The position numbers and the translations under genes were made by a program. Positions 1 to 9,686 of a DNA stretch of 64,000 bases are shown piece by piece. Origin of the DNA: Candidatus Kaiserbacteria bacterium (lineage in GTDB: Bacteria; Patescibacteriota; Minisyncoccia; Phycocordibacterales; UBA2100); the NCBI GenBank assembly GCA_016217925.1, contig JACRFK010000004.1:133869-197868 (forward strand). Reading direction: 5' to 3'. The first letter of the stretch is position 1, and every line of letters starts with the position of its first letter. The notes beneath the pieces are model-generated. The model was not told the DNA's origin, did no database searches, and saw only the letters and a list, made by a program, of their open reading frames with translations.

Positions 1-2
1 CC

Positions 3-185
3 AAGACCCTCGACGAGCTGCCGTACCTCGAACACGGCGCGCACTACGCGATTTTCGGCTTGGCCCTCGCGATGCTTCTCGGTATTTTCGTCCACGTCCC
101 CGAAGCAATCACCGGCCTCATCGGCTTGGTGATAATTATCTTCGCCTACATTTCTTCTCGCAGAGAGATTCGAAAGGATGCTTAA
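3..185 (+). CDS. C-terminal fragment of DUF475/TerC-like membrane protein (runs off window start)
   Basis: Hand translation KTLDELPYLEHGAHYAIFGLALAMLLGIFVHVPEAITGLIGL...KDA*; YLEHGAHYAI and PExITGLIG are typical of DUF475. Confidence 0.75.
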   Translation, partial: KTLDELPYLEHGAHYAIFGLALAMLLGIFVHVPEAITGLIGLVIIIFAYISSRREIRKDA

Positions 186-230
186 AGGTCCATGTGTTCC
201 TTATTCTTGCGACCGCGCGAATAAGGAATA

Positions 231-998
231 TCACTTGCTCGATAGTTTCCACAGGGATTCGAAGAAATCGCGGTAGCCGTCGGCGACCTCTTTGCTTGAT
301 AGGGTGAAACAGAGAATCTCGTCGCCATACACGACGAACGAAACAGATTCGGGGAATATTTCAATGCCTATAATCCCGACACCAAGCCCGGGAAGGATTT
401 TGTATGTCCAGTTGAACCAGTTTTTTTCACGTTCTGATAAATCTACTCTTCGTGATTCGACGCCGAGGTAGCGAATGGTGATATTTTTTTCTCTTCGCAA
501 CGTATCAAGTTCTTCAAGGAAGCCGAGGTTCTCAACGACCTGTCGATACCTGTCGGCAGCACTTGCGATCGCACACCAAACTGTGTTGTTCGGCATGTTT
601 CGGAGGATGTTCATTTGGTGCGACATGAATGCGACGTCACCTTGATATACTTCAAAATCCTGTTCGTGTTTCCCGGCGAAGCGATCTTGCAACTCCCTAA
701 CGATCGACTGCGTTGTGAGCCTTTTTTCTTCTACCAGACTCAAAAGCCGATTTGGAGTGTTCGCACTGAATTTCTTACGGCCGTTTTTTATAACGTGTCT
801 CGCAAGTCCCAACTCCTCAAGCCGCGTGAGCGCATTGTAGACAAACTGCCCATGCAATCCTGTGGCGCGTATCAATTTTGAAGAGCCGATGTCGCGATAT
901 GGAAGGAGAGACAAGTAGACCTTCGATTCTTTTTCGCTCAAACCGAGACCCTCAAGTTTTTTTGTGAGCTGCAGACTATCATCAAACTTTTTTGACAT
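231..998 (-). CDS. TrmB-like HTH transcriptional regulator
   Basis: N-terminal LGLSEKESKVYLSLL winged HTH, YQGDVAF linker, C-terminal effector domain ending FFESLW. Confidence 0.8.
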   Translation of the reverse strand: MSKKFDDSLQLTKKLEGLGLSEKESKVYLSLLPYRDIGSSKLIRATGLHGQFVYNALTRLEELGLARHVIKNGRKKFSANTPNRLLSLVEEKRLTTQSIVRELQDRFAGKHEQDFEVYQGDVAFMSHQMNILRNMPNNTVWCAIASAADRYRQVVENLGFLEELDTLRREKNITIRYLGVESRRVDLSEREKNWFNWTYKILPGLGVGIIGIEIFPESVSFVVYGDEILCFTLSSKEVADGYRDFFESLWKLSSK

Positions 999-1057
999 AT
1001 AGCAACAAAACGCCTTGTTTCATTGCTATTTTATCACAATAATATCATCAACAAAGA

Positions 1058-1085
1058 TTGACAATATAATACGACGTGGTATGAT
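1058..1085 (+). promoter_or_regulatory. sigma70 promoter (TTGACA, 16 bp, extended -10 TGgTATGAT)
   Basis: TTGACA 1058-1063, TATGAT 1080-1085 preceded by TG. Confidence 0.65.
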
Positions 1086-1094
1086 TCGTGGGAA

Positions 1095-1165
1095 GTTCTT
1101 TGAAAATCTTGGGAAGTGGTCATAGCGCAGGTGGGGAGGTACACCCCACCTATGCTGTGACTACT
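1095..1165 (+). promoter_or_regulatory. boxA-like motif plus 22-bp RNA hairpin leader (copy 1)
   Basis: GTTCTTTGAAAA 1095-1106; stem 1115-1165 with three G-U pairs; 3' arm contains GCTGTGACTA. Confidence 0.55.
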
Positions 1166-1204
1166 ATCTAACTCAACCCCGCTACAACGCAGAAGGAGTA
1201 AATC

Positions 1205-1543
1205 ATGTCGATTGCTTGGGATGTGTTACATGAGCATGCCGCTGAGGCATTGAGCAAAGGAGAACGCCCTACCTTTACCGTCGATGAGGGCAGCGTTTTC
1301 CGAGTGTTTGACGAAGTCTTCACGTTCAAGGAATCCCCTGTCGATGCCGATTGGTTCCGACGATTTCAGTCGCGAATCTCGGAACTTAGCGGAGGTCGGG
1401 TCACACTGACCCTTGGCGACGTTCGGCAATTCAAAAGCCGCGTGAGAGGGCCTGCGGAATATCTCCTTCTTACCGTCAATGGAATTGCTCACCGTGTGAT
1501 CTTCGGTCCATACGGTACGCCGTTCTCTTTCGACAGCGATTAG
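1205..1543 (+). CDS. hypothetical protein (112 aa)
   Basis: ORF with strong SD (AAGGAG) downstream of promoter. Confidence 0.65.
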   Translation: MSIAWDVLHEHAAEALSKGERPTFTVDEGSVFRVFDEVFTFKESPVDADWFRRFQSRISELSGGRVTLTLGDVRQFKSRVRGPAEYLLLTVNGIAHRVIFGPYGTPFSFDSD

Positions 1544-1613
1544 GTGACGGACTTCATGAGTACGTCGGGATTCAACGCAGATCAAACCGCGCTTCGGCGC
1601 AAAGGAGGGACTC

Positions 1614-1952
1614 ATGGGCTGGAGAATGTCGTTCGGTACGTTCGCTTCGGGTGACGCGATGCTTCACCACTTCAGAATGCTGGAACGTAACAGGCCAGAG
1701 GCACTCAAGCGGATTGATGAGCTTGTGGTCGAGGCTAAAATCATCAACCATCCTCTCTTCAGGCGGGTGGTCAAGAAGATAAGACAGGCCCGCGATGCAG
1801 GCGAGTTCTATATCTACAGTGGGGACTGGTGGTTCGGTGTTTATGCGGAGTCCGAGGTCCACATACTGCGCTGCTGCCTCAAGCCTCTCAAGGTGATTCA
1901 CTGCGACCAAAACTGGACAACCGGATACGGACACATCGCGGTGGAGTGGTGA
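1614..1952 (+). CDS. hypothetical protein (112 aa)
   Basis: SD AAGGAGG; preceded by gcgcTTCGgcgc tetraloop hairpin. Confidence 0.65.
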   Translation: MGWRMSFGTFASGDAMLHHFRMLERNRPEALKRIDELVVEAKIINHPLFRRVVKKIRQARDAGEFYIYSGDWWFGVYAESEVHILRCCLKPLKVIHCDQNWTTGYGHIAVEW

Positions 1953-2033
1953 CAGGCTAAAAGCTCTGAACCTGGGAGGTTAAAACTCCCCTCTTTTGAG
2001 CCCACGACTCATTCGCGGTCTCATCGAGAAAGT

Positions 2034-2103
2034 GTTCTTTGAAAAATGATAGTTGCAGCGGAGAGATGCGTTGAGAGTACGCGTTTGTCGGCTGTGACTA
2101 TCA
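2034..2103 (+). promoter_or_regulatory. boxA-like motif plus 25-bp RNA hairpin leader (copy 2)
   Basis: GTTCTTTGAAAA then tgatagttgcagc...gctgtgactatca stem with G-U pairs. Confidence 0.55.
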
Positions 2104-2121
2104 ACCAAGAGGAGCCGTCTA

Positions 2122-2508
2122 ATGACCAAGCTGAGCAAAATCCCGACGCTAATCAATCTACCTGAAATCGTGGGAGGCCATTTCTTCAAGGCGGAGTTTC
2201 CAAAATATATTGTCGCGAAAATCTCACTAGGGTCGGAGTCAAAATACGTTCTGTACGTCAATCCAGGCAGTGAAGATGACCACTTGACGCTGGAAGAGGA
2301 GCTGAAGGGCCTGGTCGCGAATCAAGTGAGCGGCGCTGTCATCGAGTGTGTCGGCGGTGGCAGAATCGCATACGCCCCTGGTGCCAGTGATTCGTGCATT
2401 ATCGGCATCACGGGAAAGAGTTCGTTATTCGGAACCGAAAACAAAGACAACACCGTAGCGATGCTCAAGGCTGCGTTCCCACATGCCGAGAAGATCGTTG
2501 CATTCTGA
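2122..2508 (+). CDS. Janus/Ocnus (PHPT1, phosphohistidine phosphatase)-like protein
   Basis: Motifs FPKYIV, ESK, H, ECVGGGRI, GKSSLFG, LKAAFP parallel human PHPT1 (FKYVL, ESK, H53, ECLGGGRI, GYSMAYG, IKAKYP); SD GAGGAG. Confidence 0.7.
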   Translation: MTKLSKIPTLINLPEIVGGHFFKAEFPKYIVAKISLGSESKYVLYVNPGSEDDHLTLEEELKGLVANQVSGAVIECVGGGRIAYAPGASDSCIIGITGKSSLFGTENKDNTVAMLKAAFPHAEKIVAF

Positions 2509-2523
2509 CGTGTCTTTAGATAA

Positions 2524-2556
2524 ACGGCCGACTGAAAAGTCGGCCGTATTCTTTTT
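2524..2556 (+). terminator. intrinsic terminator
   Basis: acggccgact-GAAA-agtcggccgt followed by T-rich tract. Confidence 0.75.
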
Positions 2557-2565
2557 CCGATTTTT

Positions 2566-3222
2566 TTATTCCACCCCCGTTATTTTTCCCGCTTCGGCGG
2601 CGCCTTCGGCTGCCTGTTCGGCTATCGAGTCGTCGGGTGCAGAGACCTGGATGTCGCGACCTGCGGGCCTGGTGGCCGGTCCACGGACGTTACGTCCGCT
2701 GCCGCGTACGGGGCGGTAGTTCAAGAGGTAGCGGCGCGGGTCTTCGTCTAGGTCGAGGAAGTTGTCGGTCGCTTCGCGGAGTTTGCCCGAGGTCGAGCGG
2801 CCGAAGGAGACGACCTCCACCTGGCAGCCGGCGTGCATTTGTAAGTACTGAACGAGCGGGACGAAGTCGCCGTCGCCTGTGATGAGGATGACTGCGTCGA
2901 GGTTTGGTGATGCGGTGATGGCATCTACCGCCATACCGACGTCCCAATCCGCTTTTTTGGCACCGCCGTAGAAGACCTGGAGCTCTTTGGTCTTTGGTTC
3001 GATGCCGACTTTCGTAAGCGCTTCGATGAAGGCCGTCTCTTCACCGCTCTCGGTGGTCACCATGTAGGCGCGTGCGCGGATGAGGCGACGGCCGGCGACT
3101 GAATCCTTGAGGACGTTGCCGAAATTCACGCGCGCATGATAGATATTTTTCGCGCTGTGGTAGAGATTTTGCGTATCGATAAATACACCGACGCGCTGTT
3201 CTGAGTGTTTGATTATGGCCAT
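2566..3222 (-). CDS. NYN domain (LabA/DUF88) protein
   Basis: VFIDTQNL, KKADWDVGMAVD, LITGDGDFVPL, LREATDNF motifs. Confidence 0.9.
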   Translation of the reverse strand: MAIIKHSEQRVGVFIDTQNLYHSAKNIYHARVNFGNVLKDSVAGRRLIRARAYMVTTESGEETAFIEALTKVGIEPKTKELQVFYGGAKKADWDVGMAVDAITASPNLDAVILITGDGDFVPLVQYLQMHAGCQVEVVSFGRSTSGKLREATDNFLDLDEDPRRYLLNYRPVRGSGRNVRGPATRPAGRDIQVSAPDDSIAEQAAEGAAEAGKITGVE

Positions 3223-5624: not shown

Positions 5625-5798
5625 TTACGGGTTGTGTCGCCGGCGGTCTTCCGGGGGGACTACGATGAGCGTCGTCCCGGTACGTTCGTCGCTCGAACGC
5701 TCCGTAACGCGGGTGCCCACTGGTCGCTCGGTTTCGAACGCTTGACGACGACGATCGGTAGCTGCCATCTGGTCGATATGACCATGGTCGGTAGCCAT
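5625..5798 (-). CDS. small hypothetical protein
   Basis: SD AAGGAGGT before ATG; ends just before terminator. Confidence 0.45.
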   Translation of the reverse strand: MATDHGHIDQMAATDRRRQAFETERPVGTRVTERSSDERTGTTLIVVPPEDRRRHNP

Positions 5799-5880
5799 GC
5801 CCACCTCCTTCATGCAAAGAGTCATCTTTGCGTTCTTATATTATGCCACTGGTTCGGCAATTATCAAGCTCTCCAAGACC

Positions 5881-7431: not shown

Positions 7432-7512
7432 ATGGCGGCAGATTTGAAGGGGCTTAAGACGCAATTTCTCCCCGCCGGAGGCGGGTCCTCCTCCGGAGGA
7501 GAATACTTATGA
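7432..7512 (+). CDS. 26-aa upstream ORF repeating the Xer N-terminus, coupled by ATGA
   Basis: [26 protein letters not shown]; TACAAT just upstream; stop overlaps ATG 7509. Confidence 0.6.
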
Positions 7513-9686
7513 AAGACTTAAAGGGTTTGAAAACCGAGTTTCTGGAGTATATAGAAATTGAAAAAGGGCGGAGCGTGAAGACGGTCGAGAATTATGACCG
7601 CTATCTCATGCGGTTCCTCAATTTTGCAAAGGTGAAGTCCCCTGCCCAGATAACCGAGCAGATGGTGCGTGAATTCCGTATCACACTCAATCGTTCCGCA
7701 GGGGTTACAGGCACGATGAAGAAGAATACACAAAATTATCACCTCATCGCGCTGCGCGCGTTCCTCAAGTTCCTCCGCAAGCGTGATATCGAATCGCTCA
7801 ATCCCGAGCGTATCGAACTTGCCAAGGTCGGTGGACGCGATTTGGATCTCATTACCGCCGATGAGCTCAACAGGATCATGCGTGCGCCCACGGGTGACGA
7901 GCTAGGGGGTCTGCGCGACCGCGCGATCCTCGAACTTTTGTTTTCTACCGGTTTGCGCGTCTCGGAACTCTGCAATTTGAATCAGGATATTGACCTCTCT
8001 CGCGATGAGTTCTCGGTGCGCGGCAAAGGAGAAAAGGTGCGCGTGGTATTTCTCTCGGCGTCCGCGAAAAAAGCGGTGGCCGAATATTTGAAAAAGCGCG
8101 GTGATATGAGCAAGGCGTTGTTCGTCAGTTACGGCAAAGGCGGCACGAGCAAGGGAAAAGATTTACCGCGCATCACTCCGCGCTCCGTCGAGCGATTGGT
8201 AAAACAGTACGCGATAAAAGCGGGCATCACGCGCAAAGTGACGCCGCATGTCATTCGTCACTGTCTCCACGCGGAAACGCGAATAATGGGAAACCCTTCG
8301 CTCACAACGGCGAAGGAGTTGTTCGCATCCGAAAAGCAAAAGAAGGTCCTTGGATTTGATTGGAAAAACAATCGTCTCATGCGGGCCTCGATTAAGAGAC
8401 GTGAAACACATTCCACACAACGCCTGATTTCTTTATGGGCGGACGGCCGGGAAATTTGCTGCACCCCGTACCACAGCTTTTTCACCCCGAGCGTTAACGG
8501 TATTGTGCCGATACAAGCACAAGACCTGAAAGTTGGGGATTATGTAGCGGGAGTTCGCAGTGTTCAATGGTCCCAGGGAAGTAGACCCGAAAGCGAATCC
8601 ACGGACTTTTGGAGATTGCTTGGATATATTCTTGGTGATGGAACGCTTAGTGAGGCACGGCGAGGTATTATCATAAATGATAAAGAACGTCGCCACATTG
8701 ACCTATACAACGAAATTGTTTTTCGTGTGACGGGCAGGTGCGGAACCGTCACTAAATTGTCAGGCGGCAATGGGTACGCGCTCAATATCTACAATGTTGG
8801 TTTTCTGAAAAAGGTACGAGCTCTTGGAATTACACAGCGTTCAAAAGAACGGCGTGTCCCCGCGGGCCTGTTTCAGGAGTCCGAGACCGCGATCCGAGCC
8901 TTTCTTGCAGGCTATTACGATGCCGAAGGAAATAACGGCAGGATTAAGATGTTCTCCGCAAGTAAGGAACTTCTGAAAGACATACAAATGTTGCTGCTCC
9001 GGTTGTCTATCGAGAGCATACTGCTCCGCCGAGAGCGGCGAGTGAAACTTCCCCAAGGTCGGGTCATTGACCACGTCATATACATACTGCATGTGACGTA
9101 TCCACCAAGCGAGAATCGCTTTGTGGAACTCATACCAACATTCAAACAACGCATACGACCGAAAAAAGAGTGGCAGCGACTCGATATTGCATTACCTACG
9201 CAACCACTGATTCGAGGACTCTACCCCCTTTTGCTTGCCAAGAGGGGTTTCATCCATTGGCTCGGTAACCGTTATGGCATACGGTACCTGAAACGTTATA
9301 CAAGAATATGTACAACACCGCTGCTGCTCTCTGTGTTTCTTAAGGCCTGCAAAGAAAAAAGAATTCGAAATCCATTTATCAAGCAACTCGAGGTTCTCAA
9401 CCGACTCGATTCGATTCGATGGCTCCGAGTGAAGAAGCTGGAGATGGTCGGCGGTGTATCGAAAGTTTACGATTTCACGATAGAACCAACGCACAATTTC
9501 ATCACAGATGGTTTTATCTCGCACAACTCATTCGCGACTGACCTACTCGAAAATGGTGCCGATCTGCGTAGCGTGCAAGCGCTCCTCGGCCACGCCAACA
9601 TCGCAACGACCCAAGTCTACACGCACGTGACCGACAAACACCTCCGCGAAGTCCATCAGGCATTTCACGGCAAACGCCGCAAATAA
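7509..9686 (+). CDS. XerC/XerD-like tyrosine recombinase containing an intein
   Basis: [31 protein letters not shown]|intein|[34 protein letters not shown]; spliced product about 303 aa. Confidence 0.93.
8262..9527 (+). mobile_element. intein (422 aa) with LAGLIDADG homing endonuclease
   Basis: Starts Cys (CLHAET), block [14 protein letters not shown] and [10 protein letters not shown] motifs, VYDF block F, ends HN before Ser+1. Confidence 0.93.

Follow-up and report, generated by a model that had tools for sequence, protein, structure and literature searches.

The two boxA-like repeats in the window, the whole 64,000-nucleotide stretch analysed here, are members of a conserved family of mRNA leaders that is found across one bacterial order and is absent from Rfam. 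Each leader is composed of a boxA-like 12-mer followed by a hairpin of 21–32 bp. With about even confidence, we propose that it recruits NusB-S10 to each translation unit and carries a stem cut by RNase III, within a TrmB cassette whose content turns over. The window corresponds to C2:133869-197868 of a 980,822-base genome (G000) that was scored 100% complete, and the cassette occupies a slot between a DUF475 gene and an NYN-domain gene. Its features, in window coordinates, are:

1..185, + strand: 3' end of the DUF475 gene, left flank of the slot (PF04332, E 4e-15)
231..998, - strand: TrmB-family regulator gene, divergent from the cargo operon (PF01978, E 1e-8)
1043..1063, + strand: conserved operator-like box overlapping the -35 hexamer, a putative TrmB site (motif upstream in 25/30 TrmB homologues)
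1058..1085, + strand: sigma-70-type promoter TTGACA-16-TG-TATGAT (consensus match 11/12)
1095..1106, + strand: boxA-like 12-mer, copy 1, starting 9 nt past the -10 hexamer (exact sequence)
1109..1171, + strand: long leader hairpin, copy 1, 26 bp including a basal extension, of a subtype common to G111, G132 and others (fold)
1205..1543, + strand: orphan ORF A, 112 aa, SD 1191-1198
1614..1952, + strand: orphan ORF B, 112 aa, SD 1602-1609, without a boxA leader
1971..2032, + strand: two-hairpin intercistronic linker (folds, covariation, covariance-model matches, terminator-like flag)
1974-1990 and 1992-2029, + strand: parts of the linker, a hairpin with a pyrimidine tract and an abutting bulged hairpin
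2034..2045, + strand: boxA-like 12-mer, copy 2, immediately 3' of the linker (exact sequence)
2047..2103, + strand: long leader hairpin, copy 2, 23 bp, of a subtype common to G123 (fold)
2122..2508, + strand: ORF C, 128 aa, Janus/Ocnus (phosphohistidine-phosphatase-like) family, SD 2107-2114 (PF05005, 33.3 bits, cut-off 23)
2524..2557, + strand: intrinsic terminator-like hairpin at the operon end
2566..3222, - strand: NYN-domain gene, conserved right flank of the slot (PF01936)

Both motifs that mark the repeats, the 12-mer GTTCTTTGAAAA (1095-1106 and 2034-2045) and the 10-mer GCTGTGACTA (1154-1163 and 2091-2100), are present in exactly two copies in the genome. The succession of 12-mer, long stem-loop and SD-led gene, reported twice over in a preliminary description of this DNA, was borne out; the stems measure 26 and 23 bp and the SD-led ORFs start after the hairpins, at 1205 and 2122. 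Comparison of the hairpin folds with shuffles gave z = -3.9 for copy 1 and -6.5 for copy 2. The differing 5' arms, TGGTCATAGC and TAGTTGCAGC, each pair with the common 3' arm via G-U wobbles, and such wobbles in leader stems point to RNA. The repeated 12-mer by itself is not rare in Markov simulations of positions 999-2560 (197/3000); the 12-mer together with a shared 10-mer 30-70 nt downstream was obtained in none of 3000. Searches of window 900-2700 with Rfam 15 returned two chance-level matches and none at the gathering score, and tRNAs only were found in 21 relative loci. A contig from a possible source sequencing run, not independent of the assembly, reproduces window 1-2881 with 0 differences.

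A covariance model seeded from six copies (E<=0.05, the E-values being rough; counts include G000) revealed further leaders, with matches in 34/150 genomes of the taxonomic family and 37/150 of the order, and 58 leader loci were read besides the window's. After removal of 13 of the 66 aligned matches (duplicates, antisense matches and two sense matches without a boxA), 53 copies were kept, 47 of them held out from the seed. In the lower stem of these 47, 98.1% of the cells are paired across ten pairs, nine of which display two-sided change; neither figure was reached in any of 1000 column shuffles, a test that disregards the kinship of the sequences and uses an alignment fitted to the covariance model. 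The stem arm forms in 46 of the 47 when folded singly, and the helices are 21-32 pairs long, with a median of 24. This covariation and pairing support the selection on RNA structure that had been suggested from two copies. The accompanying notion of a fixed 3' strand did not hold: differing 5' arms that pair through G-U with an identical 3' arm are a property of the window's two copies only. The exact 10-mer occurs in 6/53 copies, and the arm has 20 variants, most changes being compensatory, around a consensus that is mostly GCT[AG]TG[AG]C[CTA]A. An invariant 3' arm is therefore rejected as a trait of the family. Base-pair identity is conserved at a U-A pair (51/53), a G-C pair (51) and a 5' G (53/53), with wobble elsewhere. 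The near-invariant U-A stands between freely varying pairs, a recurrent U-G (15/53) is found six pairs higher, and the pairs below the U-A are often open, being paired in 29/50 and 41/53.

The exact combination of the two motifs is confined to G000 among 61 relatives; in the genome_contigs set it has 50 matches, two of them true copies (L078 and L062) and the others chance-like. IMG/VR yielded three chance matches to the exact pattern, none to the family pattern and no true copy. In 38/60 leader copies, boxA starts 3-21 nt downstream of the -10 hexamer of a sigma-70 promoter, the distance being 7-12 nt in 25 of those. A different boxA-plus-long-hairpin leader is present from 1501 onward in L003, L005 and L021 (G061, G063, G019), where the stem terminates in GGGGGTGACT, with TTCGACAG or ATCGACAG coming next. 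No description of leader or linker was found in the open-access literature; supplements of comparative-RNA papers may list them.

The resemblance to boxA, likewise part of the preliminary description, holds within the genus itself, where the 12-mer fits the leaders of both the 16S and the 23S genes. The genus 16S leaders read G[AT][AC]C[TA]TTGA[AC]AA followed by YTGAATA, with a match in 20/30. G000's own 16S boxA is GAACTTTGACAA, to which the window 12-mer is identical at 9/12 positions, and the 16S leader of one relative carries the exact window 12-mer. The mRNA leader copies are without the YTGAATA extension of the rRNA boxA. The core also matches the B. subtilis boxA consensus AUGAUCUUUGAAA, which binds NusB (PMC13753749, in part). 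The 16S (L184-L201) and 23S (L354-L358) genes are separate, each with its own boxA-like motif; a 23S boxA variant lies within the 23S processing stalk in 3/5 loci (L354-L358), and in 16/18 loci a near-invariant 16S processing stalk forms the best helix between leader and trailer. A likeness of the mRNA leader to the 16S stalk, which looks good by eye, is not significant (p = 0.088), nor is one to the 23S stalk (p = 0.31). A recurrent palindromic insert (CGCTCGCTCGGAA... core) is found in the rRNA leaders at G000:C16:14630-14700, L200, L203, L205 and L207, and in the L356 23S leader.

The closest relative among known elements is the rrn antitermination leader (boxB-boxA-boxC, acting with NusB-S10, NusA, NusG, SuhB and S4), with which the window's leaders share the boxA core, NusB, NusA and NusG being encoded. 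However, their boxA stands on mRNAs, 3-21 nt past the -10 hexamer, whereas the distance in rRNA operons is 61-134 nt (21 genus operons) or 194 nt (G000), and their hairpin is local instead of a leader-trailer stalk. Copy 1 leaves no room for a boxB, being 9 nt from the -10 hexamer, and at copy 2 its place is taken by the second hairpin of the linker. In contrast to the E. coli rrn complex, Rho and SuhB were not found here and NusB carries a Nudix domain; on Rho and SuhB, the leader fails membership of the E. coli-type Nus complex.

Regarding the protein factors, G000 encodes NusB, RNase III, NusG and NusA, and NusB is present in 145/150 order genomes. No Rho scored over the cut-off in G000 or in any of 150 order genomes (8/14 controls positive), and the SuhB family (PF00459) was not found in the complete-scored G000 (14/14 controls positive). 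Because Rho is found in 0/150 order genomes, classical anti-Rho antitermination is ruled out, and with it the classical form of the antitermination once suggested for these repeats; a Nus effect would instead act at linkers, by changing intrinsic termination there, or concern RNA folding or translation. In 30/30 order loci checked, NusB carries a fused Nudix domain and rnc comes next; rnc was also present in 5/5 other leader carriers tested. In the G000 locus (G000:C1:301253-302898, L181:1486-3131), the NusB-Nudix gene (C1:301945-302898) has an intact Nudix box and is directly followed by rnc. The Nudix pocket residues H, D, W, K and E20 are invariant, while the catalytic E16 is kept in 13/31, so that binding is favoured over catalysis. 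The domain was accordingly rejected as an order-wide active 5'-trimming enzyme, G000's own box being intact. No description of the NusB-Nudix arrangement or of the TrmB cassettes was found in the open-access literature.

Copy 2 and nine other internal leader copies are directly preceded by a linker of two abutting hairpins, which, like the operator-like box and the link with DGR-target genes described below, goes beyond the earlier reading of the locus. This linker is a second conserved, uncatalogued structured RNA motif. Its pairing is 92%, with two-sided change at 10/20 pairs (0/500 shuffles; slid controls 40-58%), and its model matched 41/150 taxonomic-family and 18/150 order genomes at E<=0.01. 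All 45 linker matches that were read fold as two hairpins, none with a promoter <=80 nt away. Downstream of 35 non-seed linkers, a full boxA was found in 5, G[TC]TCTTT in 8 (0.6% at random) and GTTCT in 12 (2%), and linker and boxA are thus genuinely, though loosely, coupled. A stop codon was counted upstream of 36/45 linkers, a figure without a control to which no weight is given. With its pyrimidine tract, the first hairpin resembles a weak intrinsic terminator, the U-tract having 4-5 T of 8 in 31/45. Considered as a ribozyme, the linker displayed no conserved unpaired core and had no Rfam match. In G256, putative hammerhead-like ribozymes replace the linker before boxA-like motifs: three type III hammerhead-like motifs (L296:5551-6508; E 2e-7 to 1.5e-3, below the gathering score) stand between small genes, each leading directly into a boxA-like motif, which in two cases is followed by a long hairpin. 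Both placements of the leader, at the promoter and internally after a linker, are present within the one TrmB cassette of the window.

In the reading that we prefer, TrmB would bind the box over the -35 hexamer and thereby gate the operon, and NusB(-Nudix)-S10 would, with high probability, bind boxA. The loaded complex might then carry the polymerase past weak intrinsic terminators such as hairpin 1 of the linker, the second boxA serving to reload it, a step whose probability we place just under one half. RNase III might cut near the base of the hairpin, by analogy with the lambda N leader, and reset how stable the next gene's message is and how readily ribosomes reach it; this step is slightly less probable again. 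Cassettes and leader-gene units would be swapped by recombination, with no dedicated integrase. Several observations weigh against this reading: SuhB was not found in G000, the mRNA copies are without YTGAATA, linker and boxA are loosely coupled, the U-tract of the linker is weak, and in five other slot loci no boxA-like match precedes the cargo.

Cleavage of the hairpin by RNase III is plausible from the features of the stem. RNase III substrates have a helix of >=11 bp, and about 22 bp for full contact (PMC1540722 and PMC3867540; other substrate sources are PMC3074117 and 10.1101/2023.03.12.532304; all in part), a length range that comprises the 26- and 23-bp helices of the window and the 21-32 pairs of the 47 held-out copies. 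The conserved U-A and the recurrent U-G, which are spaced at a fitting distance, resemble the proximal and distal boxes of such substrates (PMC1540722, in part). Counting against cleavage, the A-U preferences at positions 3 and 4 of the proximal box are only partly reproduced in the leader, the basal pairs are loose, and the likeness to the rRNA stalks of the genus is not significant.

A broader and rather unlikely version of this reading sees the Nus system as a reader of mRNA 5' ends in Rho-less Patescibacteria, built of NusB-Nudix, RNase III, an end-forming linker and a plug-in unit. NusB would bind a boxA placed no more than about ten bases from where the transcript begins, the fused Nudix pocket would grip or trim the adjacent 5' triphosphate, and the co-encoded RNase III would cut the adjoining hairpin. 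The linker would be an end-forming element interchangeable with hammerhead ribozymes, and because it forms RNA ends, internal genes would be treated alike. Promoter or linker, boxA, hairpin and gene would together constitute a plug-in unit through which newly acquired orphans and hypervariable DGR genes could be expressed and tuned.

The boxA-loaded Nus factors could alternatively repress translation of the next gene, with relief by hairpin cleavage and no role in read-through, which we hold to be a little less probable than the 5'-end reader. There are precedents, a boxA 5' of the SD repressing suhB and nutL repressing N (PMC5725501, in part); the copies next to a promoter often stand before one gene only and have no terminator to overcome, and the lack of any detected Rho in the 150 order genomes fits as well. 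Nevertheless, at suhB it is Rho that enforces the repression, with SuhB taking part, and neither protein was found here; moreover, internal copies are located right behind terminator-like linkers. Equally improbable is that the hairpin stays uncut and serves either to stabilise the 5' end or to bind a dedicated dsRNA-binding protein, for which the conserved pairs would be determinants. Base-pair identity is indeed conserved at several positions beyond structural need, the leader differs from the rRNA stalks of the genus, and it lies at or near RNA 5' ends. However, no co-travelling protein was seen, since the cargo differs and TrmB is near few matches, and the median helix, at 24 pairs, is as long as RNase III substrates are.

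The hairpin might also juxtapose boxA and SD, in which case boxA would double as an anti-SD and NusB binding would free the ribosome site. For copy 2, the predicted boxA-SD pairing is 0.81 and the accessibility of the SD rises from 0.18 to 0.64 with boxA open, but copy 1 has 0.05, pairing exceeds 0.3 in 13/49 copies only and any UUCUUU pairs with an SD. We consider this reading improbable, and a general anti-SD role of boxA was rejected on the count of 13/49.

The conservation of the slot was examined from its NYN flank, a gene present in 108/116 genus genomes. Of the 107 other NYN loci in the genus, 60 were fetched for comparison; the DUF475 gene ends <=400 nt from NYN in 21 of these, and five have TrmB in the slot; a TrmB search, positive in 12/151 taxonomic-family genomes, added three more slot loci. 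Ten loci were compared, from nine genomes including G000 and one metagenome contig. They have no cargo ORF in common at E<=1e-3, so the variation of the downstream genes among relatives envisaged in the preliminary description is found throughout this set. The modular leader for accessory genes that it proposed is supported as well. In five of the nine other slot loci the cargo is not preceded by a boxA-like match, and the leader is therefore optional for slot cargo. The identities of TrmB and NYN are uncorrelated (Spearman rho -0.03; 36 pairs, 9 loci): G000 and G132 are 93% identical in NYN and 56% in TrmB, and G111 and G132 are 81% and 87% identical, respectively. The N-terminal 90 aa of TrmB are 63-76% identical to nine homologues and the remainder 38-51%; the predicted DNA-binding end is conserved, the rest is not. 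G123 and G139 have one cargo family in common, preceded in each by a different leader subtype (L218, L222). We infer that whole cassettes, and units within them, have been exchanged horizontally.

The cargo of the window is largely orphan. A search of 5.8 billion proteins with ORF A returned only ORF A itself, which had no Pfam, PADLOC or PHROG match and no usable Atlas match, and ORF B had no homologues or families in protein, Pfam, PADLOC, PHROG and Atlas searches; two of the homologue searches with these ORFs spanned proteins of 61-196 residues only. ORF C is a bacterial protein of the Janus/Ocnus family, absent from every other locus fetched, and in the PDB it matched a 14-kDa phosphohistidine phosphatase at E 0.33 only. 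Elsewhere in the window there are a tyrosine-recombinase-like ORF of 725 aa (7509-9686), by eye apparently split by an intein that contains a homing-endonuclease-like insert, two more weak TrmB-like matches (G000:C2:150258-150503 and 160807-161085), and a further small SD-led ORF after rarA (5625-5825, - strand) with AT-rich DNA upstream. G139 and G124 have leader-bearing islands on the same side of NYN as the latter ORF. In the slot of G132 (L087), between cargo and NYN, an opposite-strand pair was recognized by eye as AbrB-like antitoxin and Fic/Doc-like.

The cores of attC sites are RYYYAAC...GTTRRRY. That the repeats are DNA recombination sites of this kind, bounding gene cassettes, is very unlikely, even though cargo turnover is complete among the slot loci and leaders of different subtypes can precede one and the same cargo family (L218, L222). 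The succession of promoter, boxA, hairpin and SD is strictly polar; the GTTCTTT core, which is not GTTRRRY, stands 5' of genes; no repeat stands before ORF B or before many of the cargo genes in the slots; and most copies in the order are single and precede DGR targets. The earlier suggestion of a cassette boundary is thus unsupported in the sense of a DNA site. A recent functionless local duplication, to which the spacing of only 939 nt might point, is hardly credible, as the two copies are of different subtypes, each nearer to copies of other genomes than to one another, and order-wide covariation refutes it.

The genes downstream of the leader in relatives are dominated by one BLASTP cluster, which accounts for 31/58 ORFs, mostly of 140-235 aa. 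In the three loci tested (G248, G214 and G241), an RT gene adjoins the target, and the template repeat differs from the 3' end of the gene by mismatches at A only (22, 16 and 20, respectively), which identifies the cluster genes as DGR targets. A model of one of these proteins gave weak C-type-lectin matches (Z 4.9-6.1; TvpA 5.5, Mtd 4.9), and Foldseek with this model returned nothing significant. The family profile had no match in G000 at E<=1, and the leaders of the window therefore serve unrelated cargo. The sole RT of G000 is on another contig (G000:C1:280867-281322, L353, in a 555-codon open frame); at the window locus no DGR target gene was found, nor an RT or TR/VR pair beside the leaders. 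Other leader cargo in relatives includes a methyltransferase, a PLP enzyme and alpha-CTD-like proteins. The cargo of L221 and L223 has an RNA polymerase alpha-CTD-like domain, in one case with a sigma-70 region 4 as well, and may consist of transcription modulators.

In phage lambda, the N leader has an RNase III hairpin between nutL and the RBS of N, and boxA also occurs before CRISPR arrays. The order of boxA, long hairpin and ribosome-binding site is the same as in the lambda N leader (nutL: PMC5725501, in part), but the leaders described here are chromosomal, neither an N-like protein nor a boxB following boxA was seen, and searches of IMG/VR with two patterns yielded no true copy. The boxA in the 5' UTR of E. 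coli suhB (Baniulyte et al. 2017, PMC5725501, in part) is likewise non-rRNA and upstream of a protein gene; the suhB and CRISPR boxA elements act through or against Rho, whereas here Rho was not found and a conserved long hairpin follows. Compared with the DGR target genes of CPR bacteria, the link is to a single protein family, preceded by more than half of the order-wide leader copies (31/58), and the window's cargo is outside that family. TrmB/TrmBL regulators and phage-moron-like cassettes have in common with this one a regulator, a divergent promoter, an own terminator and a position between conserved genes, but the cargo here carries modular structured RNA leaders and linkers. The locus is neither a DGR, nor an integron, nor a known Rfam family.

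Why NusB and boxA persist without Rho is a question that has been raised for Gram-positives (PMC13753749, in part). The leader family provides dozens of natural mRNA boxA substrates in an order with Rho in 0/150 genomes that has kept NusB-Nudix and rnc, and a Rho-independent role of NusB is therefore testable with purified proteins. Two uncatalogued structured RNA motifs, the leader and the linker, are added to those known. Reduced genomes may use such a common expression module to wire both their fast-turnover accessory genes and their DGR targets.
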